A DNA stretch of 64,000 bases. Origin: an uncultured Planctomycetales bacterium (lineage in GTDB: Bacteria; Omnitrophota; Gorgyraeia; Zapsychrales; JAHFFX01). Both the position numbers and the translations under genes were made by a program. This document shows, in pieces, positions 3,490-50,882 of the stretch. The stretch's first letter is position 1, and each line of letters opens with the position of its first letter. The notes under the pieces were generated by a model. The model did not search any database. It worked only from the letters and a program-made list of their open reading frames with translations, and was not told the DNA's origin. The stretch covers positions 14,376 through 78,375 of the forward strand of contig CAZTCI010000004.1 in the NCBI GenBank assembly GCA_964612665.1, given 5' to 3'.

Positions 3490-3497
3490 TTTCTCTC

Positions 3498-19371: not shown

Positions 19372-19386
19372 AAGGAAGAAGTTATT

Positions 19387-21884: not shown

Positions 21885-21885
21885 C

Positions 21886-23123: not shown

Positions 23124-23129
23124 CTCAAA

Positions 23130-24071: not shown

Positions 24072-24083
24072 TGGAAAACAGAT

Positions 24084-25520
24084 ATGCAAAAAGTGCAATT
24101 ATTAAAATTTAACCGAATGACAAGGAAGTTTGTAAGCTTGATTTCAATCTTGGGAATTAGTGTTCTTTTTTCGACGTCAAGCCATGCCACGATCTCGACG
24201 GCATCATCCGTTTCTGAAACGACTCATGCAGATTTAGATAATATCTGGAATGACCCGGTTTTCAAAAAACAATTCATCGGTGCCTACGGTATTAATGCAG
24301 AACTAGAGCCGCGGGTGACACCCGAAGAAGTTGCGATTTTAGAAAAAATTCGGCCAATGATGGCGGAAGATTTGCCGAAGGCGGAGCTTACACTTAAAAA
24401 ACAGATGAAGCCGGATTGTTCGGCGATTCTGGATTTCACATTAGGCGGGATTCAATTTCAGCAAGACAACATGAAGGAAGCACTTGAGAATTATCAGAAG
24501 GCTGCTACAAAATTCCCAAGTTTCCGTCGAGCTTGGCGCAATCTTGGACTGATCCATGTTCGTAATGGGAAGTATGATGATGCGATCAATGCTTTTACCA
24601 AGATGATCGAACTCGGCGGAGGCGATGCGTATTCTTACGGACTTCTTGGATTTGCTTACGCGTCGAAACAAGATTATCAAGCGGCTGAGGCCGCGTATCG
24701 AAACGCGCTTTTGCTTCAGCCGGATAATACCGAATGGCGGCTGGGTTTAACGCGCTGTGTTTTCAAACAGCAAAAGTTTGAAGACGCGGTGACGCTGCTT
24801 GAAGTTTTGATTGACCGCTATCCTGAGAAGACGGATTTTTGGCTGCTGCAGGCGCAGGCTTATTTGGGAATGAAACAACCGTTAAAAGCGGCGCAGGATC
24901 TGCAAGCGATCGATAGTCTCGGCAAATCGACCGTCGATAGTTTAAACACGCTCGGTGATATTTGTTTAAGTGAAAATTTGATGGATTTGGCGGTGGATGC
25001 TTACAAACGGGCGATTGATGCGGATGTTAAAAAGTCGCTCGCACGGCCGTTTCAATCTGCTGACATGTTAGCGAGCCGCGGCGCACTTGCGCAGGCAAAG
25101 CAACTCACCGATCATATCCGCGATGTTTTTAGTAAAGACATGGCTGAAGCTGACCGCCGCAAACTTTTAAAACTCGAAGCGCGTTTAAGCATGGCCGATG
25201 GCGGCGGGACTGCGGAAACCGCCAAGGTCTTGGAAGAAATCTTAAAACTCGATCCGCTCGACGGCGAAACGCTAATGCTTCTTGGCCAATACTATAATAG
25301 TCAGAATGAACCTGACAAAGCAATCTTCTATTATGAACGTGCTGAAAGTTTGGATGCGTATGAAGTCAAAGCTAAACTGCGTCACGCGCAAGTTTTGATC
25401 GGCCTTGGCCGGTATACGGATGCTGTTCCGCTTTTGCGCCGCGCGCAGGAAGTCAAACCCAACGAAGACATCGCCCGTTACATCGAACAAGTCGAACGCA
25501 TCGCCAAAACCCGCCATTGA
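24084..25520 (+). CDS. Secreted TPR-repeat protein (TtpD-position component of the TonB2-type cluster)
   Basis: Signal peptide followed by multiple TPR motifs (…AWRNLGLIHVRNGKYDDAINAFTKMIELGG…AYSYGLLGFAYASKQDYQAAEAAYRNALLLQPDN…). Confidence 0.7.
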   Translation: MQKVQLLKFNRMTRKFVSLISILGISVLFSTSSHATISTASSVSETTHADLDNIWNDPVFKKQFIGAYGINAELEPRVTPEEVAILEKIRPMMAEDLPKAELTLKKQMKPDCSAILDFTLGGIQFQQDNMKEALENYQKAATKFPSFRRAWRNLGLIHVRNGKYDDAINAFTKMIELGGGDAYSYGLLGFAYASKQDYQAAEAAYRNALLLQPDNTEWRLGLTRCVFKQQKFEDAVTLLEVLIDRYPEKTDFWLLQAQAYLGMKQPLKAAQDLQAIDSLGKSTVDSLNTLGDICLSENLMDLAVDAYKRAIDADVKKSLARPFQSADMLASRGALAQAKQLTDHIRDVFSKDMAEADRRKLLKLEARLSMADGGGTAETAKVLEEILKLDPLDGETLMLLGQYYNSQNEPDKAIFYYERAESLDAYEVKAKLRHAQVLIGLGRYTDAVPLLRRAQEVKPNEDIARYIEQVERIAKTRH

Positions 25521-25639: not shown

Positions 25640-26764
25640 ATGGACTTAACCGTTATCTCCACATACCGCTGCAACTCAAAATGCCAGATGTGCTACATTT
25701 GGCAGAACCCAACCGATTCTAGAGAAGAAATTTCCCCCGAGACACTTTCTAAACTTCCCGCAGGCTTTGACAACCTAAATGTTTCCGGTGGTGAACCAAC
25801 GCTGCGTCAAGATTTGCCGGAAATCATCGATATTCTTTATCCGAAGGCGCGGATCATGGAGATCAGCTCTAATGGTCTTTTCCCTGAGCGCCTTCTTCCC
25901 ATTATAAAAAAATATCCCAATATTAAAGTTCGATTTTCCATCGAGGGTGACGAGTTAACTAATAACCACATCCGCGGTGAGGTTGATGGATTTAATATCA
26001 AGGTCAATGGTCTGCGTAAACTTAAAGAAGCGGGCGGGACAGATCTTGGTTTCGCGATGGTCATTCAAGATGAAAATGCTTCGCAGCTCGTCAGCGTCTA
26101 TGAAATGGCCCGGTCGATGGGCGTTGAATTGTCCACCTCGACGCTGCATAACGCTTGGCAATTTCACAAAAACGATAATCACTTTTATAACCGTTTGAAG
26201 GTCGCTAAAAAAGTCGAAAAGTTAATCACCGCTATGTTGAAGACGAACAATATCAAAAATTGGTTCCGGGGCTATTTGAATCTCGGACTCATTAAAAAGA
26301 TTCTTGGTCAAAACCGTCTACTCCTGTGTACGGCCGGAACCAATTTTATGTTTATTGATCCGTGGTCCGATGTGTGGGCCTGTAATGTGCGTACGGATTT
26401 GCCGATGGGAAACCTTAAACATCAAAGCTGGGAAGAAATTGTTTTAAGCGAAACCGCCGAACAAAGCCGCAAGAAAGTCGCACATTGCCAACAAAACTGC
26501 TGGATGGTCACAACCGCCCGCACTGCGATGCGCTCGACGGTATTTCCGATGCTGCCCAAACTCCAGCCGCTTTTGTGGGTCCTTGAAAATAAAATCAAGG
26601 TGAGTTTAGGAATGGACGTCGCCTTTGACCAATACATTAATTATGCGGATGTCAAAGCGAGTCCACAGATTCCGAGAACATCTTTTCTCAATAAATCATT
26701 CAAATCCAGGATCCAGCGAGCCATCGATCCGCATTACATCTTAAAGGAGTTTTACAACCGATGA
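25640..26764 (+). CDS. Radical SAM enzyme with C-terminal SPASM/twitch-type auxiliary Cys cluster
   Basis: CxxxCxxC at residues ~11-18 (YRCNSKCQMCYIW) with a downstream 'VSGGEPTL' glycine-rich SAM motif. The C-terminal cysteines are …LLCTAGTNFMFIDPWSDVWACNVR…AHCQQNCWMV. Translationally coupled (ATGA) to the following glycosyltransferase. Confidence 0.8.
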   Translation: MDLTVISTYRCNSKCQMCYIWQNPTDSREEISPETLSKLPAGFDNLNVSGGEPTLRQDLPEIIDILYPKARIMEISSNGLFPERLLPIIKKYPNIKVRFSIEGDELTNNHIRGEVDGFNIKVNGLRKLKEAGGTDLGFAMVIQDENASQLVSVYEMARSMGVELSTSTLHNAWQFHKNDNHFYNRLKVAKKVEKLITAMLKTNNIKNWFRGYLNLGLIKKILGQNRLLLCTAGTNFMFIDPWSDVWACNVRTDLPMGNLKHQSWEEIVLSETAEQSRKKVAHCQQNCWMVTTARTAMRSTVFPMLPKLQPLLWVLENKIKVSLGMDVAFDQYINYADVKASPQIPRTSFLNKSFKSRIQRAIDPHYILKEFYNR

Positions 26765-27960
26765 AAATCATTGTCCTAGGCACCCGAGGTTTTCCGAACA
26801 TTCAAGGCGGCGTTGAGAAGCATTGTGAAGAGCTTTACCCGAGGCTGGCGGCCCTTGGCTGTGATGTAATAGTGATTGGCCGAGCACCGTACACAGGTTC
26901 CGAATCCTATCAGCATAAAGGCGTTATAATTCTCCCGATTCAGTGTCCAAAACATAAATTTTTGGAAGCATTCCTTCATACCTTTCTGGGAATTTTTAAA
27001 GCCAAACAATTGAAAGCGGACGTTGTGCATATTCATGCGATCGGCCCGTCGCTGTTCGTGCCGCTCGCGCGTTTATTAGGATTGAAAGTGGTTGTAACGC
27101 ATCATGGACCGGATTATGAACGAAAGAAATGGAATAAATTCGCGAAAGCTGTTTTGAAATTTGGTGAACGATTAGGTGCGACATATGCGCATCAAGTCAT
27201 TGCGATTTCCCGCGGGATCGCCGAGTCTTTGCGCCACGAGTTCGGCCGGGAAGCGACCGTGATTCCCAATGGCGTTGTAGTTACTGATCGTTCCAATGAA
27301 GAGAAAATGCTTAAACGCTACGAACTCGAACGGGGAAAATATATTCTTGCCGTCGGGCGTTTTGTTCCCGAAAAAGGATTTAACGAATTGGTCGAAAGCT
27401 TTCATCAATTTTCATCAGCCGATCCCGCGCCGCGCAACCGATGTAAACTGGTCATCGTCGGCGACGCAGATCACGAAGATGAATTTAGCCGGCAACTTAA
27501 AAAAAGGAGCAGCAACATTCCGGACGTCGTTCTGACGGGTTTTCAAAACGGAAAATCGCTGCAAGAACTTTACAGCCATGCCGGCCTTTTTGTTTTGCCG
27601 TCTTTTCACGAAGGACTGCCGATTGTCTTATTAGAAGCGATGAGTTATGGCTCGTCGTGTTTGGTTTCGGATATTCCGGCCAATCGTGAAGTTGCGTTGG
27701 AAGAGTCGAGGTATTTTAAACCTGGCGATATTAATCTGATGAGTCAGAAGTTCAAAGAATTTTTGAATCAACCCACGACGGAAGAAATCCGTCAAAAACA
27801 AATTCAGCATATTAACGATAAGTACAACTGGACACAGATCACTAAAAAAACTTTGGAAGTGTATGAAACCACCTTATTACAATCGCGTAACAGCTTTTTA
27901 GCAAAATTGCTAAAAGAAAAACTATTTTTGATCAAGACCATTCCATTAAAGTCTTCTTGA
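26761..27960 (+). CDS. Glycosyltransferase family 4 (GT-B)
   Basis: The N-terminal MKIIVLGTRGFPNIQGGVEKHCEELY is the GT4 N-domain. The C-domain carries …LVIVGD…FVLPSFHEGLPIVLLEAMSYGSSCLVSDIPANREV… (E-X7-E type). Confidence 0.8.
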   Translation: MKIIVLGTRGFPNIQGGVEKHCEELYPRLAALGCDVIVIGRAPYTGSESYQHKGVIILPIQCPKHKFLEAFLHTFLGIFKAKQLKADVVHIHAIGPSLFVPLARLLGLKVVVTHHGPDYERKKWNKFAKAVLKFGERLGATYAHQVIAISRGIAESLRHEFGREATVIPNGVVVTDRSNEEKMLKRYELERGKYILAVGRFVPEKGFNELVESFHQFSSADPAPRNRCKLVIVGDADHEDEFSRQLKKRSSNIPDVVLTGFQNGKSLQELYSHAGLFVLPSFHEGLPIVLLEAMSYGSSCLVSDIPANREVALEESRYFKPGDINLMSQKFKEFLNQPTTEEIRQKQIQHINDKYNWTQITKKTLEVYETTLLQSRNSFLAKLLKEKLFLIKTIPLKSS

Positions 27961-28315: not shown

Positions 28316-28352
28316 AAAAAACCCTGACCAGTTGGCTGATCAGGGTTTTTTG
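28316..28352. terminator. Bidirectional rho-independent terminator
   Basis: aaaaaa-ccctgaccag-ttgg-ctgatcaggg-tttttt. The A-run and T-run flanks allow function on both strands. It lies between the + GT4 gene and the convergent minus-strand paralog 1 (stop 28373). Confidence 0.75.
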
Positions 28353-28372: not shown

Positions 28373-30930
28373 TTAGTGCAGATTCATATCAAGGGTACGC
28401 TGAATAGTTCCGCCAGGCCCGGTGCAGGTAAGCACATAAGATGCTGTTGTACTGACTGAACCGAGACTCGCTGTGCCGTTGACCGGTTCTGCTCCAGTCC
28501 ATCCGCCGGAAGCGGTGCAGGTGGTGGCGTTGGTTGTCATCCAGGTCAAAATGGGAGCAGCAGTTAAGTTTAAAGTCGGTGGAATACTGATTGTGAAAGT
28601 GGCGCTGGCGACGGGGCTGTTGGTCATGCCGCTTTTGACAGCGATGGCTTTAATGGTTGAAGTTGATGAAACAGTGATAGGAGCTGAATAAAGTGTCGAA
28701 CTTGTTGAAGGTGTTGAGCCGTTGGTTGTGTAATAAATGGAAGCGCCGGAGGCCGCACTTAAAGTGACAGAAACAGGAGCAGAGAAAGTTCCACCGTTAG
28801 GAGAAATTGAAGGCGGTGAAAGAACCGAAGGGGAATTGCAGTAATTAACCTCGGTGATCCAGAAAACAGTTGTGTAACCAGGATTACCCAGATTGGCCGG
28901 TTGAAAGAAACGAATCTTGGAAGTAGTCACAGGAGCAAAAGTGACAGTTGAAGAAGCGACATCGCCGGAATAAGTGGTTGAAGCCAAAGTGACCCAAGCG
29001 GTGCCGTTCCAGGATTGAACATCAACGCGTTGAGATGTCATGTATTTATTTTGAAGAGGGTTAAAGGCCCAAGAAATGGTCGCGGAGTTGAGTTGTATTT
29101 TTTGAGAGCCGAAATCAATTTGGATCCAATGATCGAGAGTGTTATCAGACGAAGCCCAGGTCGTGGCAGTGCCGCCGGAGGCGTTGATGACTTCATCGTC
29201 GATGGGATTAGTGGAGTAGCCTGAGTAAGTACTGTCGACGGAAACAACGCGATTGCCGTATTCAACTTCAGTCACCCAAAAAACAGTTGTATAGCTGGGA
29301 TTACCAAGATTCGCTGGTTGCAAGAAGCGTAGTTGAGACGTGGTGACAGCAGGAAAGTTAATTGAAGAACTGGCGACATCACCGGAATAAGTCATGGAAC
29401 CTAAAGTAACCCACGCCGAACCATTCCAAGATTGAACATCAACGCGTTGGGCGGTCATATATTTATTTTGAGAAGTGTTAAAAGCCCAGAAGATAGAAGC
29501 GGTGTTGATTTGTTGAGGAGAGTTAAAGTTTACTTGAATCCAATGATCAAGAGTATTATCAGCCGAAGCCCAGGTGCTTGTTGTTCCGCCGGAGGCATTG
29601 ATTACACCATCATCGATGGGAGTTGTTGTATATCCAGAGTAAGTACTGTCGACGGAAACGCCGGACGAGGGCGGAGGAGTGGTCCCACCGTATTCATACG
29701 CACCAATATCGAAGGCCGCTCCTTGAGGACGAGATTTTCCCTCTAGGTCGGTTGTGACGCCGGCGCTTGTTGCATCCATTCCTTTATCAATAGCCGCCGA
29801 GCCGCTTTGAAGGTGATAATCATTAGCGCTGGCATTAACGAATTTCGGATCAACGCTAAGGTTGTTGCTCGCACTAAAATATAATCCTCCCGAGTTTTGA
29901 ACCGTATCGCCGCTACCGCCATTTTGCCAGCAAACATTGTTATTGATAACAGAATTGTCAGAACCAGTAAGGTTCATAATACAGCCATAGGGATTCGCAA
30001 CCACTGTATTATTATCGACGACGGTATAGGTCGCCCCATTCATCAGAATGGCAGGAACATGGTAGACATTGTAAGTACCGTTATTCCAAAATATATTGTT
30101 AATGACTTTGTTATTAGTTCCCACAGTCAGGATAATGCCACCTTGCCGGTTATCGTGAATGCTGTTATTTCGGTAGATATTGTTATTGACATCAGAAGCG
30201 GAATCCTGTTCATTTTTTATTCCATAACCGCCCGCATGATGAATCCGGTTCCCATCGATTAAACAGTCACGAGCGGTTATATAAACGGCATGTTCATATC
30301 CGCTTGGCGCGCTCGTCGGGTCGCTAGGATTCCAACCGCAGTTGTAAATGTCGTTGTTGATATAGTTGATATGATCGTTGGGATTGGACGCGACACTTAT
30401 AGGACGTTGAGTATAGAAACAGCTGTTGTGGTACGCATTTTTGATTGTGCTGTTTTGAACAGTGACATAATGAGTGAAAGGATTTCCGGGTGTATTGCCG
30501 CCGGTGCGGACAGCAACAGCAGGTACGTTGGAAGCGTCAATGGTGACATTATCAATAGTAATGTAGCTGCGATCGTAGATGGAGATGACATCGCCGGCAT
30601 TATTTCCGCCGGATGGTTTGATAATAACCTGTTCATTGGGCGCTCCCTTAATTACTGTGGGTTGTGAAGGAGAAACGCCCGAGGGGATTCCGGGAACCGT
30701 GCTAATGGATTCCGCATAAGTTCCGGAATGGATAATCAGCATATCGCCGGCAGATAATTTGCTTATTCCTTTATTAATAGTCAAACAAGGACTGGTCTGG
30801 GAACAGAGATTGGTGGTATCACTTCCGGTTGTGGCGACATAATAAGTATTGCCAGCGGCTGACGCGGAGGTAGCTGCAGTTAAAAAAATAATAACGGAGA
30901 AAACGATCTTCTTAATGGGGCGCATCATCA
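28373..30930 (-). CDS. Paralog 1 of a secreted right-handed beta-helix / carbohydrate-binding protein family (beta-helix type B + 2x discoidin-like + CHB_HEX_C-like + C-terminal Ig-like Cys domain)
   Basis: The conserved start MMMRPIKKIVFSVIIFLTAATSASAA (signal peptide) is used; the longest ORF extends to 30961. Parallel beta-helix repeats (…NNIYRNNSIHDNRQGGIILTVGTNNKVINNIFWNNG…). Two ~140-aa repeats (…DHWIQVNF…ASIFWAF…KYMTAQRVDVQSWNGSAWVTLGS…LRFLQPANLGNP…WVTEVEYGN) are assigned to the F5/8-type-C/discoidin class. 'GGTFSAPVSVTLSAASGASIYYTTNGSTP…IKAIAVKSGMTNSPVASATF' matches the chitobiase/beta-hexosaminidase C-terminal-type domain. The final ~70 aa form a Cys-containing domain. Confidence 0.75.
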
Positions 30931-31023
30931 TGAAGTCCTTTCTTAGTATTGTTCTATTCATTTTTGTGTGTCTTTGATATTTTTCATATTCGATTTATTC
31001 CAGAATTGAATGGCAAATATAAT

Positions 31024-31055
31024 CCCTGAACCGCTCATAAAGCGGTTCAGGGAAA
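31024..31055 (-). terminator. Stem-loop terminator between paralogs 2 and 1
   Basis: ccctgaaccgctcataaagcggttcaggg hairpin 9 nt downstream (minus strand) of the paralog-2 stop (31064). The U-tract is weak. Confidence 0.45.
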
Positions 31056-31063
31056 GTGAAAAT

Positions 31064-33478
31064 TTACTGTACATTGACCGTCACAGTTTTCTGAGTAGTG
31101 CCGCCAGATCCAGTACAAGTCAATACGAAAGAAGCCGTGGTGCTGACCGAACCAAGACTGGAAGTGCCACTAATAGGTTCTGTCCCGTTCCAACTGCCCG
31201 ACGCTGTGCAAGTGGTGGCGTTGGCTGCCGTCCAGGTCAAAATAGGAGCGGCGGTTAAGTTTAAAGTCGGTGGAATACTAATTGTGAAAGTGGCGCTGGC
31301 GACGGGGCTGTTGGTCATGCCGGTTTTGACAGCGATGGCTTTGATTGTTGAAGTAGCGGAAACAGTAATTGGACCGGAATAAAGAGTGGATGAAGTCGTC
31401 GGGGTAGAACCGTTGGTTGTGTAATAAATGGAAGCGCCGGAGGCCGCGGTTACAGTAACAGAAACAGGAGCGGAAAAAGTCCCGCCATTGGGTGAAAAAA
31501 CAGGAGCAGGCAGGATTGGATTATTAGAGTAATCAACTTCCGTGACCCATAACACACCCGTGTAAGCAGGATTGCCCAGGTTAGCGGGCTGAAATAAGCG
31601 GATACGCGAAGTAGTGACGGCCGGAAAACAGATTGAAGAAAGGGCAACATCAGAGGAACGGACTAGCGAACCAAGTGTGATCCAAGCCGCGCCATTCCAA
31701 GATTGCACGTCGAGACGTTGAGAAGTCATGTATTTATTTTGAGCATTATCAAAAGCCCAGGAAACCGTGGTTGAGTTAATTTGTTTTTGAGAACCGAAAT
31801 CAATTTGAATCCAGTGATCAAGGGTGCTATCAGCGGAGGCCCAGGTCGAGGCAGTGCCGCCAGAGGCATTAATGACTTCATCGTCAATGGGAGCGGTGGT
31901 GTAATTGGGATAAGTGCTGTCGACGGAAATAACCCGATTACCGTATTCCACTTCAGTGACCCACAAGATGTTAGTGTAATTGGGATTGCCTTTACTGGCT
32001 GGCTGAAAGAACCGTAGTTGAGAGGTAGTGACAGTCGGGAAATTGATCGAAGAAGTTGCGACATCGCCCGAATACATCATTGAACCTAATGTGACCCAAG
32101 CCGAACCATTCCAGGACTGCACATCGACACGTTGGGAGGTCATGTATTTATTTTGAGCATTGTCAAAAGCCCAGAAAATGGAAGCCGTGTTTATTGGTTG
32201 AGGAGAAGTGAAATTGATTTGAATCCAGTGATCGAGCAAATTATCGGCCGAAGCCCAGGTTGTCGCCGTGCTTCCGGTGGCATTAATGATGCCATCATCA
32301 ATGGGATTAGTTGTGTATCCTGGATAACTGCTGTCGACGGAAATTGATCCGTTTCCGTCGGGCGGAGGCGTTGCCCCGTATTCATACGGTCCAATGTCGT
32401 AACTAGAGCCTACCGGCCGACCGTTACCATCAAAGTCGGTAGGGACTTGAGAAAGTGTTATTCCGGCATTAATGGCGGGAGAGGTTGCTTTTAAATGAAA
32501 ATCGCCTGAGCCGTCTGCACTGTAGTTGATAAATTGTGGATCGGCAGCAATCGTTCCAGTTATATTTACCGGAACCCGAAGATCATTTAGATATGTCGCT
32601 CCATAATCTATATTATTTTGATAGGTATTCCCACTGGCTGAGCTCGATTCATAAATGTTATAAGTATTTTTGTAGAAAATATTATTTTTCATAAAGCACC
32701 CATTACAGTAAGACGTGATCCCGGTGTTTGATCCAAAAAGCACATTATTGGCAATTAATATACTGCCTGTCGGCCCTGGATAGATCTGAAGTGCGGCATG
32801 CTTAGCGTTTCCCAAAATGTTATTCGCAAGTGTGCCAGCCCCATATCCATAGTAAACGGCATGCGCTCCTGGTTGTATGTTGCACAACAGGCCAATGCGT
32901 ACGATTTTATTGCCGATGATATCGTTGTTGGTTGAAGCAGGATTTGTTTGGAGAATACCTGCGCCGCCATATTGATCGCATACTAATCCCGACGTAATAT
33001 CATGGATATAGTTACCAATCATCCGCACATTCGATGCATAATTTACAATGCCTATAGTGCCATCGCCGCTCATATCAAATCCCTGAATATCTACGTAACT
33101 GCCGTTCTGAGTCCCAGGATCGCCATTCCACCAAACCCTCCGCAGGCCGTTTGTTACAAGTTTTGCCCCCCATGGTGTCTGAGAAATAAACCGAATCCGC
33201 GCGGATGCTGTTCCGCTTACATTGTTTTTTATGCCATATTCCGTCGTTCCTGAGGTGCTCGGAGACAGGGAGTATATTCCTGGCAACACCATTACCGTAT
33301 CCCCGGCACTTACCGAATTAGCGGCCTTTTGAATTGTTTGAAATGGCTGTGTCTGGGTTCCGGGATTGCTATCAGATCCCGACGGAGAAACGTAATAAGT
33401 GGCCGCGGAGGCCGAAGTGGTTGCAGCTAAAAGAATGATTACGGAGAAAACGATCTTCTTAATGGGGCGCATCATCAT
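31064..33478 (-). CDS. Paralog 2 (beta-helix type A + 2x discoidin-like + CHB_HEX_C-like + C-terminal Ig-like Cys domain)
   Basis: Starts MMMRPIKKIVFSVIILLAATTSASAATYYVSPSGSD…. Its N-terminal beta-helix module differs from paralogs 1 and 3 and matches paralog 4. The downstream discoidin-like pair and C-terminal modules are near-identical to paralogs 1 and 4. Confidence 0.75.
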   Translation of the reverse strand: MMMRPIKKIVFSVIILLAATTSASAATYYVSPSGSDSNPGTQTQPFQTIQKAANSVSAGDTVMVLPGIYSLSPSTSGTTEYGIKNNVSGTASARIRFISQTPWGAKLVTNGLRRVWWNGDPGTQNGSYVDIQGFDMSGDGTIGIVNYASNVRMIGNYIHDITSGLVCDQYGGAGILQTNPASTNNDIIGNKIVRIGLLCNIQPGAHAVYYGYGAGTLANNILGNAKHAALQIYPGPTGSILIANNVLFGSNTGITSYCNGCFMKNNIFYKNTYNIYESSSASGNTYQNNIDYGATYLNDLRVPVNITGTIAADPQFINYSADGSGDFHLKATSPAINAGITLSQVPTDFDGNGRPVGSSYDIGPYEYGATPPPDGNGSISVDSSYPGYTTNPIDDGIINATGSTATTWASADNLLDHWIQINFTSPQPINTASIFWAFDNAQNKYMTSQRVDVQSWNGSAWVTLGSMMYSGDVATSSINFPTVTTSQLRFFQPASKGNPNYTNILWVTEVEYGNRVISVDSTYPNYTTAPIDDEVINASGGTASTWASADSTLDHWIQIDFGSQKQINSTTVSWAFDNAQNKYMTSQRLDVQSWNGAAWITLGSLVRSSDVALSSICFPAVTTSRIRLFQPANLGNPAYTGVLWVTEVDYSNNPILPAPVFSPNGGTFSAPVSVTVTAASGASIYYTTNGSTPTTSSTLYSGPITVSATSTIKAIAVKTGMTNSPVASATFTISIPPTLNLTAAPILTWTAANATTCTASGSWNGTEPISGTSSLGSVSTTASFVLTCTGSGGTTQKTVTVNVQ

Positions 33479-33633
33479 GAAGTCCTTTCTTAATTGATTA
33501 ACATGAAGGAACGATTCTTATGTTATGAATACGGTTCGTTTTAATGAATAAAAAAATCCATTCTTCATTGTTGGCTTTTTTTGTATTTTCGAATAGTTCA
33601 TGTTTGATCTATTTCGGTCCGTCCTTTTCAAAT

Positions 33634-36600
33634 TTATGGATAATCAATAGTAAGCGTAGCGCGTCCTTGCTTTGTTCCTGCAGGCCCGGTGCAGGTGAGC
33701 ACATAAGAAGCGGTTGTGCTGACTGAGCCAAGACTCGCCGTGCCGCTGAGAGGTTCAGTCCCAGTCCAGCTGCCCGACGCTGTGCAAGAGGTGGCGTTGG
33801 TGGTAGACCAGGTTAGAATCGGGGCCGCGCTTAAGACTATGGTCGTCGGCGGCAGATTGATTGTGAAACTTGCGCTAGCGACGGTACTGTTAAGCATCCC
33901 GTTTTTGACAGCAATGGCTTTAAGAGTTGTGGTGGAGCTTAAAGTCATTGGTGCTGTATATAAAGATGAAGAAGTCGTCGGAGTTGAGCCGTTGGTTGTG
34001 TAGTAAATGGAAGCTCCGACGGGTGCGCTTAAAGTGACCGATACAGGTGCAGTGAATGTTCCTCCATTAGGTGACATGGTTGGGGCGGCCACTTGAATGG
34101 GTGTCGAATAAAGCGATTGGATCTCAGCTGCTGACAGCGCGCGGCTGTAAAGACGCAGATCGTCGATGGCGCCATCAAAAGTACGATCAAGACTTGGAGC
34201 ATTACCAATGACGATAGGGTTGGTTGTAAATTTAAGAGTGCCGGTGAGAGGGTTTTGAGATTGATAAGCGGTCTCGACACCGTTGACAAAGAGGTGAAGC
34301 TGGCGGTCGCCTTTATCATCGTAGGTGACAGCGACGTGGTTCCAGGAGTTAAGAGAAATCGCGGAAGTAGCTGATACTGAAATGAAAGTCGTGCCCGCCG
34401 AATTTGTGACGGAAGCACAGAGAGTGTTCCCGGGATTAACGAGGAAATAAAAGTCATCAAATTTAGCAGATGATTCCCGTGAGACGATACGGCCATAACT
34501 AGCTTCGCCGAGGCTGTTGGGTTTAATCCAGGCAGAATAAGTAAAGGAAGAAAGATTTTGGGTGCTCGTAGTCAATGGGATGGTGGCAATATCATCGACT
34601 CCGTCGAAAGAAAGAGCAGCGCCAAACTTTCCAATGGCTAAACGCGCGGGATCAAAGGATTCTACAGTATTGTTGAATCCCAGAATACCGTTGTTGCTTC
34701 CATTAGAACTAGAAATTGTCTGACCGGATGATTCATCGAAATTCCAAGTGTCAATAATGGAGTAGGGCGGAGAGTTAAAAACATTTGAAATCTCGCTGGC
34801 GCTTAAAGCGCGATTGTAAACGTTGACCTCATCGATGGCCCCATCAAAAGTACGATCAAGACTTGGCGTGTTACCAATGAGAATGGGATTATTTGTAAAT
34901 TTCAGAGTTCCGGTGACGGGAGGTTGAGCTTGATAAGTGGTTTCAACACCGTTAACAAAAAGATGAAGTTTACGGTCGCCTTTATCATCGTAAGTGACAG
35001 CGACGTGATTCCAGGCGTTGAGAGAAATGGAAGAAGCAACCGCGTATGAAATGAACGTTGTGCCCGCCGAATTTGTGATGGAAGCACTGATAGTATTTCC
35101 AGGATTAACGAGTAAATAAAAGTCATCATATTTGACAGAAGATTCCCGTGAGACGATGCGGCCGTAACTAGCTTCACCGAGGCTGTTGGGTTTAATCCAG
35201 GCAGAATAAGTAAAAGAAGAAAGATTTTGGGTGCTCGTAGTCAATGGGACGGTCGCAACATCATCGACTCCGTCGAAAGAAAGGGCTGATCCGTATTTTC
35301 CTAAGACGCGGGCAGGATCCGAGGATTCCGCGGCCGTGCTTAATCCTAAAAAGCCATGGTTAGCTGCAACTCTGTCGACAATCGTTTGACCTGAACCTTC
35401 ATCCAGATTCCAGGAAGCAGCGGCAACGGGAAGGGGAGCGCCAGGCGGAGGCGGCGCAACTGTTCCACCATATTCATAGGCGCCGATGTCGTATCCAGAA
35501 CCTTGAGGGCGGGATTTTCCCTCGAAGTCAGTTGTAATGCCAACTGATGAAAGATTGGCGCCGGCATCTATCGCCGCAGAACCAGCCTGCAAGTGGAAGT
35601 CAGTGGCAGAAACAAATTTGGGATCCGTAAACAGATTATTGGAAATAACATTGCCTATGCCAATCGCAGCATCATCAATAATATTATTGGCGTTCTGCCA
35701 ACAGATATTATTTTTAATTATGCTGTTTGTGTCATGATTGTTACCGGAGACACAGTTTCCTCCATTGCCGACCATGGTGTTGTTAAATACTTGATTACCA
35801 GTACCGCCCCAAGCAAGATGTACTGCCGAATAGCTGGTATTATTATAAATCAGGTTATTGGCCACAAGATTGTTATCTCCTACATTGATCATAACGCCGC
35901 CGTCAACACAATCATGAATCCTATTGTTACGATAGATATTGTTGTTTAGCCCACTACCACCGCTCCAATATTGTTGAATGCACCAGCCACCGGGAGATCC
36001 GTAGATATCGTTGTTTTCAAAAAGACTATTGCGGGCGGAATTATATAAGACATGATTGTATCGACTGGATACTAGCACAGTATGCAGGCTCGAATTGCGT
36101 ACAGTTATGTTGTAAACATCTAGTGGGTCCCAAGTCTCAAACACGCCAGATTGACCATTACGCATTTCACATTTATCAAAAATAATATCGTGAGCATTAC
36201 CTCCGACGATAATATTGTTTCCTGCATACTGGTCTACGCCTCCCGGCATATTGCTGCCATCAATAGTCAATCCAATAAATTTAAGATATTGGTTGTTACG
36301 TATACTGAAAGCCGCATTATAATTTCCCCCGTCGAGAGGTTCTATCAGCACAGTTTCTCCGTTAGCAGCCTGAATCGTGGTATAGGCACTCGCACTTCCA
36401 GCGGGAATAATCGGCGAACCTTTACTGATTTCACTGATAAGATCGGTGTATGTTCCGGCTTTGATCGTAAGCGTATCGCCGCCCGTCATACAACCTATGC
36501 CGGCGAGAATGGTTAACTTAGGGGCAGAAAGACTTTGAGCCTGAGCGCAGGAATATGAATCACTGCCGGTCTTTGCCACATAATACGTGGCCGCCGAGGC

Positions 36601-36666
36601 GCAGGAGGTTGCAGTTAAAAACATGATTACGGAGAAAACGATCTTCTTAATGGGGCGCATCATCAT
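33634..36666 (-). CDS. Paralog 3 (beta-helix type B + 2x LamG/ConA-like lectin domains + CHB_HEX_C-like + C-terminal Ig-like Cys domain)
   Basis: Starts MMMRPIKKIVFSVIMFLTATSCASAATYYVAKTGSD…. Two ~190-aa repeats carry the LamG-type signature (…ALSFDGVDD.ATVPLTTSTQNLSSFTYSAWIKPNSLGEASYGRIVSRES…WNHVAVTYDDKGDR.LHLFVNGVET…) and replace the discoidin pair of the other paralogs. Confidence 0.75.
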   Translation of the reverse strand: MMMRPIKKIVFSVIMFLTATSCASAATYYVAKTGSDSYSCAQAQSLSAPKLTILAGIGCMTGGDTLTIKAGTYTDLISEISKGSPIIPAGSASAYTTIQAANGETVLIEPLDGGNYNAAFSIRNNQYLKFIGLTIDGSNMPGGVDQYAGNNIIVGGNAHDIIFDKCEMRNGQSGVFETWDPLDVYNITVRNSSLHTVLVSSRYNHVLYNSARNSLFENNDIYGSPGGWCIQQYWSGGSGLNNNIYRNNRIHDCVDGGVMINVGDNNLVANNLIYNNTSYSAVHLAWGGTGNQVFNNTMVGNGGNCVSGNNHDTNSIIKNNICWQNANNIIDDAAIGIGNVISNNLFTDPKFVSATDFHLQAGSAAIDAGANLSSVGITTDFEGKSRPQGSGYDIGAYEYGGTVAPPPPGAPLPVAAASWNLDEGSGQTIVDRVAANHGFLGLSTAAESSDPARVLGKYGSALSFDGVDDVATVPLTTSTQNLSSFTYSAWIKPNSLGEASYGRIVSRESSVKYDDFYLLVNPGNTISASITNSAGTTFISYAVASSISLNAWNHVAVTYDDKGDRKLHLFVNGVETTYQAQPPVTGTLKFTNNPILIGNTPSLDRTFDGAIDEVNVYNRALSASEISNVFNSPPYSIIDTWNFDESSGQTISSSNGSNNGILGFNNTVESFDPARLAIGKFGAALSFDGVDDIATIPLTTSTQNLSSFTYSAWIKPNSLGEASYGRIVSRESSAKFDDFYFLVNPGNTLCASVTNSAGTTFISVSATSAISLNSWNHVAVTYDDKGDRQLHLFVNGVETAYQSQNPLTGTLKFTTNPIVIGNAPSLDRTFDGAIDDLRLYSRALSAAEIQSLYSTPIQVAAPTMSPNGGTFTAPVSVTLSAPVGASIYYTTNGSTPTTSSSLYTAPMTLSSTTTLKAIAVKNGMLNSTVASASFTINLPPTTIVLSAAPILTWSTTNATSCTASGSWTGTEPLSGTASLGSVSTTASYVLTCTGPAGTKQGRATLTIDYP

Positions 36667-36744
36667 GAAGTCCTTTCTTAATTGGTAATATATTGGAAGA
36701 TTTTTGATTCTTTTTTCTTTTTTAGGATTGTTGTCATGTTCAAT

Positions 36745-39201
36745 TTAATGAGGAATTAAATCCCAAGATTTCTGCACGGTGCCGCCAGGGCCGGTGCAGG
36801 TTAAGGTTAAAGTTTGAGAAGAATTCATCGTCCCTAAACTTGCGGTGCCGTTGATGGGTTCTGGTCCAGTCCATCCGCCGGAAGCGGTGCAAGTGGTCAT
36901 GTTGGTTGTAGACCAGGTGAGAACGGGAGCCACACTTAAGTTGAGTGTTCCTGGAATATTGACCGTAAAAGTGGCGCTGGCCACCGGACTAGTAGTCATG
37001 CCGGTTTTAACAGCAATGGCTTTAAGTGTTGTGGTGGAAGTTAAAGTTATAGGACTAACATATAAAGATGAAGAACTCGTTGGAATAGAACCGTCAGTTG
37101 TGTAATAAATCGAAGCGCCAGAGCTCGCGCTTAATGTAACAGAGACTGGTGCAGAAAAAGTACCGCCGTTGGGAGAAAAAGAAGGCGGAGAAAGAACTGA
37201 AGGCGAATTTTTGTAATCGACTTCAGTAACCCAGAAGATACCTGTGTAAGTAGGATTACCCATGTTAGCTGGTTGAAAGAATCTGATTCGGGAAGTGGTG
37301 ACCGCTGGAAAAGTGACTGAAGAACTGGCAACATCGCCGGAATAAGTAGTTGAGCCCAAAGTGATCCAGGCTGTTCCATTCCAAGACTGAACATCGACGC
37401 GCTGGGAGGTCATGTATTTATTTTGAGACGTATTAAAAGCCCAAGAAATAGTAGCGGAGTTGAGTTGTGTTTTTTGAGAACCAAAATCAATTTGAATCCA
37501 ATGATCGAGGCTGTTATCAGAGGAAGCCCAGGTGGTTGCCGTGCCGCCGGAGGCGTTGATGACTTCATCGTCGATGGGATTCGTTGTGTAACCTGAATAG
37601 GTACTGTCGACGGAGACAGCGCGGTTGCCATATTCAACCTCGGTGACCCAGAAGACGGTGTTGTAAGTGGGATTACCAAGGTTAGCGGGTTGAAAGAAAC
37701 GTAATTGAGAAGTCGTGACGGCTGGAAAATTAATTGAAGAACTGGCGATATCGCCGGAGTAAGTCATAGAACCTAAAGTGACCCAAGCCGAACCATTCCA
37801 AGATTGAACATCAACCCGCTGAGAGGTCATGTATTTATTCTGGGCAGTGTTAAAAGCCCAGAAGATGGAAGCGGTATTGATTTGTTGAGGAGAAGTAAAA
37901 TTGAATTGAATCCAATGAGCGAGCGTATTGTCAGCCGAAGCCCATGTAGAAGTTGTGCCGCCGGAGGCATTGATAACGCCATCGTCAATGGGCGTGAGGG
38001 TATATCCAGAGAAAGTACTGTCGACGGAAACTGAAGCTCCAGAAGGAGGAGGTGTAGCGCCCCCATATTCATAAGCACCGATATCAAAGGCGGCTCCTTG
38101 AGGACGCGGGGCGTTGTCGAAATCCGTTGAAATTTTTGAATAACTAATGCCTTTATCAATGGCAGGACTTGTGGACTTGAGATGATAATCTCCGCTGCCA
38201 TTGGCTTGGTAGTTTACAAATTGAGGATCAGATTGAACATCTCCGGCGATTGTTACTAAACTCGCAGCACCGCCGTACAGATAGTCGTATGGCTTAGTAT
38301 TGTTGTAGAGAAGATTGTTCATGTAACTTATATTTGAAGAGCCTGAGCCAAGGCCATACATCATAATACCGGGGCCTGTATTACCATAGAAGATGTTATT
38401 GGCGACATAGATGTCGTGTATGGTGTTTCCCCCATCTGAACCCATAATTAATCCTGCACTGCCGCTGTTGAAAACAAGATTATTGACCACATCCACATTG
38501 TATGGATGATGATACAAATGAATCGGGTAAGAATTGACTCGATAAATAATGTTGTTGGCGATAACGCCACTGCCGTAGCCCTGATAAATACCGTGCTGCC
38601 CAGGGATGCCCGGCACAGAAGGACAAGCAAACGAAAGATCGTGCACTGAATTACCGATAATGTCGTTATCCGTAGCGTCTCGGGGACTGACGTTACCTGA
38701 TCCAGCCGTGTCAATTGCAGAACCCATGTCCCCTGTCCCGTATGTGCCGCAGTCAGCGCGGCCGAGATCATGAACGTGATTTCCTAAAATTTTGGTGTGA
38801 GACGCATAGTTTAAGATGCCGATGATGGCGTCGCCTGAAATATCAAACCCTTCGATGTTTATGTAATCCACATAGTTCGTCCAAATATAGGTCGATCCTG
38901 ACGTCCGTATTTTTGCTCCCCACGGTTGCTGAGAAACAAAACGAACGCGTCCCGCGGTGGAGTTCCCACCCCGGCTGGTACTTATGGATCCGTTGTAAGT
39001 TCCCGGCATAACCATAACAACATCACCTGCATTTACTATATTGGCTGCCTTTTGAATTGTTTGAAATGGCGCGGTTGATGAACCGCAGGTGCTGCAATCT
39101 GAACCCGTCGGAGAGACGTAGTAGGTTGCCGCTGAGGCGGAGATTACAGTTGTGAAAAAAAAGACAAAGGTGAAAATGCAATTTTTAAATAGATATGACA
39201 T
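36745..39201 (-). CDS. Paralog 4 (beta-helix type A + 2x discoidin-like + CHB_HEX_C-like + C-terminal Ig-like Cys domain) with a replaced N-terminus
   Basis: Starts MSYLFKNCIFTFVFFFTTVISASAATYYVSPTGSD…. The first ~20 codons differ from the family leader but are still signal-peptide-like. An aagga RBS lies upstream. The remainder is collinear with paralog 2. Confidence 0.7.
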   Translation of the reverse strand: MSYLFKNCIFTFVFFFTTVISASAATYYVSPTGSDCSTCGSSTAPFQTIQKAANIVNAGDVVMVMPGTYNGSISTSRGGNSTAGRVRFVSQQPWGAKIRTSGSTYIWTNYVDYINIEGFDISGDAIIGILNYASHTKILGNHVHDLGRADCGTYGTGDMGSAIDTAGSGNVSPRDATDNDIIGNSVHDLSFACPSVPGIPGQHGIYQGYGSGVIANNIIYRVNSYPIHLYHHPYNVDVVNNLVFNSGSAGLIMGSDGGNTIHDIYVANNIFYGNTGPGIMMYGLGSGSSNISYMNNLLYNNTKPYDYLYGGAASLVTIAGDVQSDPQFVNYQANGSGDYHLKSTSPAIDKGISYSKISTDFDNAPRPQGAAFDIGAYEYGGATPPPSGASVSVDSTFSGYTLTPIDDGVINASGGTTSTWASADNTLAHWIQFNFTSPQQINTASIFWAFNTAQNKYMTSQRVDVQSWNGSAWVTLGSMTYSGDIASSSINFPAVTTSQLRFFQPANLGNPTYNTVFWVTEVEYGNRAVSVDSTYSGYTTNPIDDEVINASGGTATTWASSDNSLDHWIQIDFGSQKTQLNSATISWAFNTSQNKYMTSQRVDVQSWNGTAWITLGSTTYSGDVASSSVTFPAVTTSRIRFFQPANMGNPTYTGIFWVTEVDYKNSPSVLSPPSFSPNGGTFSAPVSVTLSASSGASIYYTTDGSIPTSSSSLYVSPITLTSTTTLKAIAVKTGMTTSPVASATFTVNIPGTLNLSVAPVLTWSTTNMTTCTASGGWTGPEPINGTASLGTMNSSQTLTLTCTGPGGTVQKSWDLIPH

Positions 39202-39571
39202 TGAAGTTCCTTTTCTTGCTAGAGGAATAATAGTATAAAAACATTTCAGAATATCGCTTTGTTCGTTCCTCGAATGATTGTAATGTTTTATAAATATGGG
39301 AATGAAATCCCAATATGTTTTCTGAACCGTTCTTTACAGAGCGGGACAGGATAAGATGTAATTTATGAAATGAGTTGAGAGTCTCTTTGTTTATCTGGGA
39401 GTAAGAGACTTGGTAAGTAATTACGGGAATAGTGCAGAGGGTAATTAAAAAAAAGCTGGCAGCAAACCAGCAATAAGCGGTGTGGCTATTTCTGGCCGCA
39501 AAAGCGGAAGTAATAGTCGTAAGAAAAACGATTAGACTGAGGACGATCTCCTTAATGGGGCGCATCATCAA
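39185..39571 (-). pseudogene. Stranded 5' fragment of the paralog family (conserved leader and signal peptide, then unrelated frame)
   Basis: Encodes (TTG)MMRPIKEIVLSLIVFLTTITSAFAA…, which matches the MMMRPIKK signal peptides of paralogs 1-3. It then diverges into low-complexity sequence and terminates where paralog 4 starts. The upstream nucleotide block …ggacgatctccttaatggggcgcatcatca… matches the 5' leader of the other copies. Confidence 0.55.
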
Positions 39572-40167
39572 GAAGTCCTTTCATTCAAAACTTATCTAAA
39601 GATAATTTATGGTGTCCCCTCTATATTGGTTCCTCTGTTATTTAAGGGTAGGCTTTCCCTTAAATTGGAGTCATGGACTCCCAGGTTTCGAACCCTTGTT
39701 GAAGCAAGAATAATCTTGCCAAAAACAAAAAAATCCATTCTGCATGTTAGAAGAATGGATTTATAAAAGCTGGGGCGAGCTTTTGGGTTCATGTTTTGCT
39801 TTTCCTTAGAATGGCTTAATTACAAAATGTATATCATGGAATGCAAAGAAATACAAGGCGTAGGCGCTGTTTCGCGGAAAACGTTTTTTTAAATTTAAGG
39901 ATAATAGCTGTGATATTAGTTATTTGTTTTCAAGAGTATATGATTTATTTATTTGAGTCTCATTCTTAACCAAAAAAAATTTAAAAGAATTTTAATATTT
40001 GTGGTTTAATAAACACAGATTTTTTGGATAATAGAAGACCGAAGATTATTCTAAATCCATTCACACTGATCCCTTCAGTGGTTTTATTCAAATAATTTTC
40101 AATAATGAGTTACCTCTTTACACGTACGCTATAATATAACCAACATTTTTAAAACAAGGAGTTAATA

Positions 40168-40926
40168 ATGAAGATGATCAATCTGCGCCGCCTCCCTATA
40201 ATCTGCAGCATTGTGTTTTTCAATTATTTAATGGGAGTTGTTTATGCCGCTGATGTGCAAACGAATATGGTGTCTTATCGTCCGGCGCCGCCAGCCATGG
40301 GAGATTTGACTCTCTGGCAAATGTTAGTGGCGGGCGGGGTCGTCATGATTTTTATCGGTCTTTTATCGATTCTGGCACTGTCCATCATTGCCTATGAATT
40401 TATGACGCTGCGGGCGGAAAAATTGGCGCCGCGCGAATTTTTTGAAGATATCGCCACCAAACTTGAAACTGCAAAAATTGATGAAGCCAGGGAATTATGT
40501 CTTAATGAAAATAATATCCTGGCTAAAATTGTTTTAGCGGGCTTGGACCGGGGTGAAAGGCATAACGGCGATATGTCTTCAATGAGAGAAGCGATGGAGC
40601 ATCGTGCACGTATAGAGGTCGGTAAACTTTGGCAGAACCTTAATTATTTATCTGACATCGTCGCGGTTGCGCCTCTTTTAGGATTATTAGGAACGGTTTT
40701 GGGAATGATCCAGGCTTTTCATGCCGTTCCCTTACAATCGGCTGGCGCAAAAGTTGCGATGCTCTCGGCGGGTATTTCAAAAGCAATGATTGCCACCGCT
40801 TCAGGTTTGATTATCGCGATTCCTGTCTTGATGGCTTATTCTTATTTTCGTGGGAAAGTTCAAGAAGTCACATCGGATATTGAAAGTTACAGTACGGACC
40901 TTATTAAAGTTATGGAAAATGCTTAA
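40168..40926 (+). CDS. MotA/TolQ/ExbB-family proton channel with N-terminal signal peptide
   Basis: N-terminal signal peptide (MKMINLRRLPIICSIVFFNYLMGVVYAADV). The ExbB core is …VAPLLGLLGTVLGMIQAF…GISKAMIATASGLIIAIPVLMAYSYF…. Confidence 0.8.
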   Translation: MKMINLRRLPIICSIVFFNYLMGVVYAADVQTNMVSYRPAPPAMGDLTLWQMLVAGGVVMIFIGLLSILALSIIAYEFMTLRAEKLAPREFFEDIATKLETAKIDEARELCLNENNILAKIVLAGLDRGERHNGDMSSMREAMEHRARIEVGKLWQNLNYLSDIVAVAPLLGLLGTVLGMIQAFHAVPLQSAGAKVAMLSAGISKAMIATASGLIIAIPVLMAYSYFRGKVQEVTSDIESYSTDLIKVMENA

Positions 40927-41027
40927 TGAGCGCATTACCCGCCTTAAAAGCTTTCAGGCGGGGTAGAAGCGCGAATTAACCCTGCGTTTTTTGCGGAGTT
41001 AAGAATTCAAAATTACTAGGAGCGGCT

Positions 41028-41450
41028 ATGTCCAAATTCGACATTTCAGAAAATTTCAAGCAAAGACCAGTTATTCAACTCGCGCCCTTGGTCGATATTG
41101 CTTTTTGGGCGCTGATTTTTTTTATGATCATTGCCATTTACAGTAAGATGGAATCTGAACTCGATATTACTGTTCCCAAATCAACCGCATCGATCGAGTC
41201 AGCCCCGAACGCTGGAAAAATGGTCATTAATATTTCCCGCGACGGACGGTTTATCGTTAATGACAAAGAAATGGATGCCGCGGCGCTTGATGACATGATG
41301 AAAAAAGTTTCGAACTTATTTCCTAACCAACAGGTGATTATCCGCGCGGATGAATTGGCCTACCATAAATACGTAGTTCAAGCCTTAGACGCTTGTATGC
41401 ACGCCAACATTTCGGATGTTTCCTTTTCAACCATTAAAGAAGAAAAATAA
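41028..41450 (+). CDS. ExbD/TolR-family protein
   Basis: 140 aa with a single TM (LAPLVDIAFWALIFFMIIAIY) followed by a periplasmic domain, as in ExbD/TolR. Confidence 0.8.
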   Translation: MSKFDISENFKQRPVIQLAPLVDIAFWALIFFMIIAIYSKMESELDITVPKSTASIESAPNAGKMVINISRDGRFIVNDKEMDAAALDDMMKKVSNLFPNQQVIIRADELAYHKYVVQALDACMHANISDVSFSTIKEEK

Positions 41451-50700: not shown

Positions 50701-50882
50701 ACGCGATTGGGACTGGAGTTGCGGGTGGAATGTTTTCGGCGACAATACTCGCGATCTTTTTTGTGCCGGTCTTTTTTGTTACTGTCCGCCGTATATTTAA
50801 AGGTGAGATCCGCCGGCATGATTCCAATATTCCAACGGAGCCGCGCATTATTGTTGAGAAGGATGAATCTCGCCATGAATAG
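47715..50882 (+). CDS. RND multidrug efflux pump, inner-membrane permease (AcrB/MexB/HAE1 family)
   Basis: 1055 aa. Canonical N-terminus [27 protein letters not shown] and 12-TM RND topology. Conserved TM4 region …[20 protein letters not shown]…. Confidence 0.9.

Follow-up and report, generated by a model that had tools for sequence, protein, structure and literature searches.

We analyzed a 64,000-nt stretch of contig CAZTCI010000004.1 (assembly GCA_964612665.1; hereafter the window), in which four consecutive minus-strand genes, here called G1 to G4, encode secreted proteins assembled from a beta-helix and several smaller modules. The first-pass annotation had described genes of 862, 804, 1010, and 818 aa, and all four were recovered as intact open reading frames (ORFs) lying head to tail in the expected places. 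They share one module order: a cleavable signal peptide ending in ..SASAA, a right-handed parallel beta-helix that closes with the choice-of-anchor-Q motif ..RPQGxxxDIGAYEYGG, a Pro-rich linker, two glycan-binding modules, a CHB_HEX_C beta-sandwich, and a two-Cys immunoglobulin (Ig)-like repeat. The two glycan-binding modules are either discoidins (D1 and D2) or LamG domains, as listed here.

28373-30931, minus strand: G1, 852 aa from the conserved ATG (full ORF 28373-30961, 862 aa)
G1 modules, minus strand: signal peptide 30854-30931; type-B beta-helix with choice-of-anchor-Q 29687-30853; discoidin D1 29267-29665; discoidin D2 28832-29266
G1 modules on the C-terminal side, minus strand: CHB_HEX_C 28577-28816; two-Cys Ig-like C-terminal domain 28376-28576
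31064-33478, minus strand: G2, 804 aa
G2 modules, minus strand: signal peptide 33404-33478; type-A beta-helix 32375-33403; D1 31952-32350; D2 31523-31951; CHB_HEX_C 31268-31507; C-terminal domain 31067-31267
33634-36666, minus strand: G3, 1010 aa
G3 modules, minus strand: signal peptide 36592-36666; type-B beta-helix 35467-36591; LamG-1 34762-35430; LamG-2 34093-34761
G3 modules on the C-terminal side, minus strand: CHB_HEX_C 33844-34086; C-terminal domain 33637-33843
36745-39201, minus strand: G4, 818 aa
G4 modules, minus strand: its own, different signal peptide 39130-39201; type-A beta-helix 38062-39129; D1 37639-38037; D2 37204-37638; CHB_HEX_C 36949-37188; C-terminal domain 36748-36948

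The four proteins are mosaics. Two helix types had been proposed, B in G1 and G3 and A in G2 and G4, and this alternation was confirmed by amino acid identity, hidden Markov model (HMM) scores, and quartet-informative sites. Helices were 45% identical between G1 and G3, 50% identical between G2 and G4, and about 35% identical across types. In the discoidin block, G1 and G4 were 89% identical, with 75-78% identity to G2, while in the CHB_HEX_C domain the closest pair was G1 and G2 (89%, against about 75% for other pairs). Quartet-informative sites split 33:5:1 in the helix, favoring G1 with G3 and G2 with G4; 14:7:4 in CHB_HEX_C, favoring G1 with G2 and G3 with G4; and 12:7:5 in the last domain, favoring G1 with G4 and G2 with G3. 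The proportion of synonymous differences (pS) also varied by module: the helices were saturated at about 0.8, the tails had lower values of 0.41-0.66, and the leader had the lowest, 0.14-0.44. Since the topologies differ between modules and the step in identity falls at a conserved place, the ...RPQGxxxDIGAYEYGG motif and Pro-rich linker, the module exchange is real, and the cassette shuffling suggested by the first-pass annotation stands in the form of whole-module exchange. Outside this genome, B-type helices were found with two discoidins (P0003 and P0004) and with two LamG domains (P0057), and no A-type helix with a discoidin occurred among the 150 best A-type relatives. Judging from these combinations, the simplest history would most probably be that the A-type genes of this lineage acquired their tail from a B-type gene.

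At their 5' ends, three of the genes share a 40-nt cassette, GAAAGGACTTCATGATGATGCGCCCCATTAAGAAGATCGT, which covers the ribosome-binding site (RBS) and codons 1 to 10. G1, G2, and G3 have identical copies, and a fourth copy heads an orphan ORF next to G4.

30903-30942, minus strand: cassette copy 1 (G1), identical
33450-33489, minus strand: cassette copy 2 (G2), identical
36638-36677, minus strand: cassette copy 3 (G3), identical
39543-39582, minus strand: cassette copy 4 (orphan ORF), two mismatches (ATG to TTG, AAG to GAG)
39185-39571, minus strand: orphan ORF of 128 aa, headed by the fourth RBS and a copy of the MMRPIK signal peptide

A near-identical signal peptide had been attributed to all four genes; this is true of G1 to G3, which begin MMMRPIKK, but not of G4, which has a different one (MSYLFKNCIFTF...SASAA). 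The start of G1 is most likely the MMMRPIKK ATG at 30931, giving 852 aa, because the conserved RBS sits within the longer ORF. Past its signal peptide, the orphan ORF consists of unrelated sequence that is AT-rich (GC 35%) and contains a terminator-like hairpin at 39455-39471; the ORF closes in a stop codon after overlapping the start of G4 in another frame. It is unchanged in an independent Logan assembly, where the gene caller annotates a 127-aa gene. Probably it is what remains of the 5' end of a gene whose start was lost or displaced, or of the former start of G4 itself. The 40-nt cassette had no matches in the metagenome collection.

Although the exchange of modules is clear, it is not recent. 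The shared parts of the genes had been described as long, almost identical nucleotide tracts, but their overall nucleotide identity was 72-85% (72-80% by blastn), exact matches between genes extended to 44 nt at most, and sliding windows of nucleotide identity reached at most about 90%. Global nucleotide alignments inflate identity across non-homologous modules (the helices, and the middle modules in comparisons with G3), so we relied on blastn and codon alignments instead. The only near-identical pieces were the 5' cassette and one 92-nt tract shared by G1 and G2.

28560-28651, minus strand: G1 arm of the 92-nt tract, 89/92 identical to G2, at the end of CHB_HEX_C and the start of the C-terminal domain
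31251-31342, minus strand: G2 arm, partner of G1 28560-28651

In a GENECONV-like permutation test, this single tract stood out (p about 0.003-0.005 before correction for six pairs), making it a candidate for a short gene-conversion tract. In the shared domains, synonymous divergence (dS) was about 0.9-1.4 (0.6-1.6 at its widest), and the ratio of nonsynonymous to synonymous divergence (dN/dS) was about 0.1. Low identity and high dS, combined with low dN/dS, indicate old paralogues held by selection, not an actively converting array. The claim of recent duplication with ongoing gene conversion thus fails on these values and on the lack of long identical tracts. Ancient, uniformly diverged paralogues would have told against the original idea altogether; the paralogues are indeed ancient, but their divergence is not uniform and module swaps are present, which leaves that idea half refuted. 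The same antisense ORFs had also been reported at equivalent positions in different copies. ORFs of the LNINALRCHVFIL type do occur, at 29018, 29435, and 37807, but two of them lie within G1 (in D1 and D2), and they mirror the conserved discoidin peptide KYMTSQRVDVQ rather than identical DNA.

Independent Logan contigs from four sequencing runs were 100% identical to the window at both edges of the array, orphan ORF included. They stop at window positions 28619 (the 3' end of G1) and 37541 (in D2 of G4), both inside repeats. The break in G4, at about its nt 1661, coincides with the end of a 41-nt exact match between G1 and G4 at G4 nt 1621. Paralogues that are 75-85% identical suffice to fragment k-mer assemblies.

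Domain searches agreed with most of the expected architecture. Pfam placed Beta_helix, Pel9A-like, and DUF1565 matches at the N-terminus of each protein, and the choice-of-anchor-Q model (NF041518) matched the helix ends of G1 to G4 at 49.4, 42.2, 52.7, and 51.5 bits against a cutoff of 25; G2 and G4 also match PF22842 and PF07602. The CHB_HEX_C-like domain was found in all four as CHB_HEX_C_1/Fn3_assoc (E about 1e-22). As the first reading had it, G1, G2, and G4 each carry two CBM32-like F5_F8_type_C discoidins, and G3 carries two Laminin_G_3 domains. The discoidins match PF00754 and PF22633 over two stretches each (58-61 bits against a gathering score of 28) and resemble the chitosan-binding DD1/DD2 structures 4zy9 and 2rv9 (phmmer, E 2e-4 to 1e-3). 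The Laminin_G_3 match in G3 also covers two stretches (219 bits against 27.6), with a hit to structure 4qvs at E 1e-8. These two LamG domains (34093-35430) are an internal duplication, 73% identical in protein and 84% in nucleotides with a dS of about 0.78, slightly younger than most of the between-gene comparisons; they share a 48-aa stretch identical save for two V/I replacements (SFDGVDD[V/I]AT[V/I]PLTTSTQNLSSFTYSAWIKPNSLGEASYGRIVSRESS).

The C-terminal domain, earlier put at ~70 aa with Cys, is 67 aa long with two conserved Cys and is present in all four proteins. It had no Pfam match even at E<=10, but an HMM built from it picked up tandem runs of the same unit in two large, unrelated proteins, 6 in one and 13 in the other; given this repetition elsewhere, it is a generic Ig-like repeat and not a sorting signal. 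The proteins end in ...TLDMNLH, ...VTVNVQ, ...LTIDYP, and ...WDLIPH, and the exosortase-substrate signature of a PEP motif, transmembrane helix, and basic tail is absent from all four.

AlphaFold models of the helices were confident for both types (predicted local distance difference test score 87 for G1, type B, and 93 for G2, type A). Their closest fold relative was Pel9A, with polysaccharide lyases and hydrolases nearest overall, and further matches included BT_1002, PL6 and PL31 alginate lyases, mannuronan epimerases, Vibrio RbmB, the adhesin PfbA, and many phage tailspikes. Viral structures were poorer matches than PL9. Structure prediction for the helices and domain searches thus found the beta-helix and carbohydrate-binding module (CBM) folds on which the first-pass annotation had built.

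The type-B family profile aligns to Pel9A over its full length (E 1.2e-27) and also to GH120, GH136, PL31, PL6, and epimerase helices, which allowed the catalytic positions of Pel9A to be compared with the four proteins.

Asp209 (Ca2+ site): His in G1 (H214), His in G3, His in G2, His in G4
Asp233 (Ca2+ site): Gly in G1 (G235), Gly in G3, His in G2, Ser in G4
Asp234 (Ca2+ site): Tyr in G1 (Y236), Trp in G3, Ala in G2, Tyr in G4
Asp237 (Ca2+ site): Lys in G1 (K239), Gln in G3, Gln in G2, His in G4
Lys273 (catalytic base): Ile in G1, Met in G3, Thr in G2, Ile in G4

Residues were placed by hmmalign to the type-B profile rather than by structural superposition, and the type-A profile failed to place the Pel9A catalytic region. 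The residue numbers used for Pel9A and XylC agree with the chain sequences of those enzymes, those of the Pel9A Asp residues fitting chain positions 184/208/209/212 plus 25. Membership in PL9 was rejected on this basis: the fold agrees, but the four Ca2+-site Asp residues and Lys273 are replaced in all four proteins. The GH120 nucleophile (Asp382 of XylC, 3vst) faces the consensus Gly of "Giilgsgd", where the G1 and G3 residues read as Thr and Asn, both non-acidic, and Glu405 of GH120 falls outside the aligned stretch of the type-B profile. Family A has its own set of conserved polar residues (H159, 98%; Y209, 100%; H206, 82%; H234, 86%; E277, 82%), and an H..Y motif occupies the position of Pel9A Asp209 in families A and B alike. 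The residues conserved across the families are H214 and Y217 in G1, and W103, W116, Y128, D135, H159, D160, H206, Y209, and E277 in G2. From these alignments, the chemistry of the helices would not be that of PL9 or GH120; they may have a different catalytic site or serve for binding alone. Our literature search on DUF1565 with a beta-helix found no paper, and we know of no choice-of-anchor-Q / DUF1565 beta-helix protein with an established function.

Relatives of these helices are extremely common. The type-A module alone drew 20,711 cluster representatives at E<=1e-3, with identities usually of 40-45%, and the family is abundant in bacteria of the candidate phyla radiation (CPR) and in Elusimicrobiota, as very large multi-helix surface proteins. 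Of 81 related loci from other genomes, 24 had at least two family members inside a span of about 20 kb; five members were present in three of the loci. Relatives adjoined glycosyltransferase clusters in three of the four contexts examined, the fourth being a phage-like contig. In that contig (L086, from Logan SRR29078260), the gene at 3016-5496 encodes a helix relative (P0006, 31% identical) beside ParB_N, DNA ligase, Pyr_excise, and many small ORFs, and from this context the helix family appears to be used by phages as well. A phage depolymerase reading of the array itself was rejected: no phage genes were present among the 48 window proteins scanned, and G1 to G4 have Sec signal peptides and no particle-attachment N-terminal domain. 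Matches of the four proteins to phage tailspike and capsule depolymerases were also weaker than those to PL9.

The closest likeness to the array was found in a gammaproteobacterial metagenome-assembled genome (MAG; L054, CAZYTL010000005.1, 2028-13502), where five same-strand tandem genes share a leader and, like G1 to G4, a helix with choice-of-anchor-Q. As in the window, these genes have swapped CBMs (discoidin, LamG, and others) and a common C-terminal tail, but that tail is dockerin-like (GDGxxDGKVNSWDW...) instead of the CHB_HEX_C and Ig-like pair. Tandem clusters in a Kiritimatiellae MAG (L007) and a Parcubacteria MAG (L052) follow the same design. All three are only 25-35% identical to the window proteins and are independent expansions.

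Comparison with better-known systems set the array apart in several ways. Pel9A and other PL9 structures (PDB 1ru4, 5olq) share only 16-18% identity with the four proteins, and Pel9A lacks the discoidin, LamG, and CHB_HEX_C tail. All four proteins pass the NF041518 cutoff and so fall with the choice-of-anchor-Q / DUF1565 / "Pel9A-like" proteins (NF041518, PF07602, PF22842, PF13229), yet the usual members are stand-alone or multi-helix proteins with a C-terminal sorting signal, whereas G1 to G4 have no such signal and combine a helix with two CBMs, CHB_HEX_C, and an Ig-like repeat. RbmB of Vibrio cholerae (PDB 9ozd) is a beta-helix lyase that cleaves the bacterium's own biofilm polysaccharide, VPS (PMC11637428, PMC12993940). 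It is a single gene without a CBM tail, and no sequence relationship to G1 to G4 was detectable beyond the fold.

The array's direct neighbors are a GT4 gene, a radical-SAM/SPASM gene, and TonB/ExbBD systems. On one side lie the radical-SAM/SPASM and GT4 genes, followed by a TonB-dependent transporter (TBDT) operon, and on the other side lie ExbB, ExbD, TPR, and VWA genes. The array had been placed next to an extracellular polysaccharide (EPS)/PEP-CTERM locus; such a locus is in the window, at 0.1-11.6 kb, but 17-20 kb away from the array.

82-5681: flippase, Wzy-like gene, GT4, and GH39-like gene, upstream of the exosortase/PEP-CTERM genes
6171-6884, 7093-7815, and 11031-11630: three PEP-CTERM proteins
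7931-8569, minus strand: EpsI-like DUF3485 gene
8562-9392, minus strand: exosortase
16360-19371: TBDT of the TonB-Xanth-Caul type (CarboxypepD_reg and Plug)
19387-25520: DUF3450, ExbB, ExbD, TonB, ExbB, TPR, after the TBDT
28316-28351: palindromic, bidirectional terminator-like hairpin (AAAAAACCCTGACCAG/CTGATCAGGGTTTTTT), directly past the stop codon of G1, where that gene and the GT4 gene converge
31023-31053, minus strand: hairpin resembling a terminator (14-bp stem), in the gap between G2 and G1
40168-43795: second set, ExbB, ExbD, TPR, directly flanking the array; VWA follows, so that the set spans 40168-45522

The hairpin at 31023-31053 suggests that G4-G3-G2 and G1 may be separate transcription units. 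A promoter consensus scan gave no excess (25 found against 22.8 expected by shuffling), a search for invertible-promoter inverted repeats around the array returned only short, AT-rich, chance-like pairs and the terminator hairpins, and no Rfam family matched across the window. The two TonB-type energizing sets (16360-25520 and 40168-45522) bracket the array, and the VWA protein is a partial match to the "marine proteobacterial sortase target" model, scoring 128 bits where the cutoff is 552. The radical-SAM/SPASM gene overlaps the array-abutting GT4 gene by 4 nt (25640-27960), with no precursor-peptide ORF evident nearby. In the EPS locus, the GH39 glycosidase recalls PslG of the Psl operon, and two secreted proteins of 313 and 642 aa (10059-11000 and 11669-13597) beside a PEP-CTERM gene had no Pfam match at E<=1e-4. 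For an AcrB-type pump (47715-50882), all of the closest relatives with a name (73-79% identity) were Verrucomicrobiota, making this the probable host lineage. The window proteins that were looked up formed singleton clusters at 90% identity, indicating a poorly sampled lineage, and protein searches with the array returned its own paralogues and then relatives only 41-42% identical.

Taken together, we think it probable that the array is an old, lineage-specific tandem family of Sec-secreted modular proteins that act on or bind glycans. Helix lineages A and B, which diverged anciently, alternate along it, and the leader and C-terminal block are younger, having spread between genes by recombination at the conserved helix-end/linker junction. 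This spread is itself old (dS about 1), all copies are under purifying selection, and later homogenization is limited to the two short tracts. Once exported, the proteins could dock on polysaccharide through their lectin-like modules and bind or cleave it in the helix groove, and differing helices and CBM sets may give differing specificities. Because relatives repeatedly adjoin glycosyltransferase clusters, the array abuts GT4, and the window has an exosortase/EPS locus, we tentatively prefer the cell's own extracellular or surface glycan as the target, a choice that would take less than half of the functional probability. Foraging on foreign glycans, coupled to the neighboring TBDT, is nearly as likely, and we regard it as a possible if doubtful function.

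Several observations weigh against this preferred explanation as a whole. Apart from Sec, no export route was found, G1 to G4 had no NCBIfam or Pfam match to a sorting or anchor signal (PEP-CTERM, T9SS, LPXTG, or GlyGly-CTERM), and the distant EPS locus has a GH39-like gene of its own. The catalytic residues of PL9 and GH120 are not kept, so the helices may be binding modules only, and G2 (His234 to Pro) and G4 (Glu277 to Met) each lack one residue conserved in family A. One helix-family relative lies in a phage-like context. The array interior (28620-37540) has no support from independent assembly, with G2, G3, and G4 absent from the contig index, and the placement in Verrucomicrobiota depends on a single, transferable gene, AcrB.

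The neighboring transporters raise the alternative that these are foraging enzymes of a locus resembling those for carbohydrate utilization containing TBDTs (CUT) or for polysaccharide utilization (PUL), which would depolymerize foreign polysaccharides outside the cell and import the fragments through the TBDT powered by ExbB/ExbD/TonB. A TBDT and ExbBD sets are indeed adjacent, the second set directly flanking the array, the helices fold most like polysaccharide lyases and hydrolases, glycan degraders typically carry CBM32-like modules, and Verrucomicrobiota, the probable host, are generally known to degrade polysaccharides. However, although the window has the TBDT and two ExbBD sets, no cytoplasmic or periplasmic sugar-catabolism genes, SusD-like gene, or dedicated sugar-responsive regulator was seen in it. 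The array also runs on the strand opposite to the two transporter operons, the four proteins lack the catalytic residues known from their nearest enzyme families, and relatives adjoin genes of glycan synthesis rather than catabolism. We consider this account of the whole locus unlikely. The same missing PL9 and GH120 residues would fit non-catalytic surface adhesins or matrix scaffolds, in which the helix serves as a rigid stalk or binding surface and paralogues differ in specificity, like PfbA of Streptococcus pneumoniae or chlamydial Pmp. The loss of a different family-conserved polar residue in each of G2 and G4, the large multi-helix surface proteins of CPR bacteria and Elusimicrobiota, and the choice-of-anchor-Q domain as a mark of surface-anchored proteins all point in this direction. 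Yet an anchor or sorting signal is absent, the strongly conserved His/Asp/Tyr/Glu set of family A resembles an active site, and strong purifying selection fits enzymes equally, which makes a purely adhesive role rather improbable to us.

The remaining alternative is that cassette shuffling or gene conversion is diversifying these surface proteins at present. It would account for the identical 40-nt leader in three genes with its orphan copy, the low leader dS between G2 and G3 (0.16), the 97% identical 92-nt G1/G2 tract that stood out in the permutation test, and the module-level incongruence. Still, dS in the shared domains is about 0.9-1.4, no exact match is longer than 44 nt, scanning of the window proteins revealed no recombinase, invertase, or silent-cassette store nearby, the four runs' assemblies agree completely at both array edges (orphan included), and the leader is missing from the metagenome collection. 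Leader identity can also stem from selection on the translation-initiation region. We therefore give a presently active system very little credence. Similarly, there is only a slim chance that the present copies are a frozen snapshot of a programmed system in which a Verrucomicrobiota lineage varies its secreted or surface proteins by joining helices to other glycan-binding tails, with the RBS/signal-peptide cassette, its orphan copy and the terminator behind it, and the conserved helix-end junction as recombination handles. The preferred reading thus remains an old family whose modules were swapped, but long ago: the first-pass annotation was largely right in its observation, which it overstated, and half right in its interpretation.

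The arrangement itself is ordinary and represents a common pattern in environmental bacteria. The array illustrates how secreted carbohydrate-active or carbohydrate-binding proteins diversify, through whole-module exchange at a conserved junction with each copy under purifying selection. The choice-of-anchor-Q / DUF1565 helix, with more than 20,000 cluster representatives that include CPR bacteria, Elusimicrobiota, and Verrucomicrobiota, is a more useful lead than the locus. This helix is homologous to PL9 from end to end, without its calcium site and lysine but with a conserved His/Tyr/Asp set of its own. If one member proves to be an enzyme, this would define a new carbohydrate-active family and provide a function for thousands of unannotated surface proteins. 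If the helix is instead non-catalytic, it would be among the most widespread bacterial glycan-binding or adhesin scaffolds.

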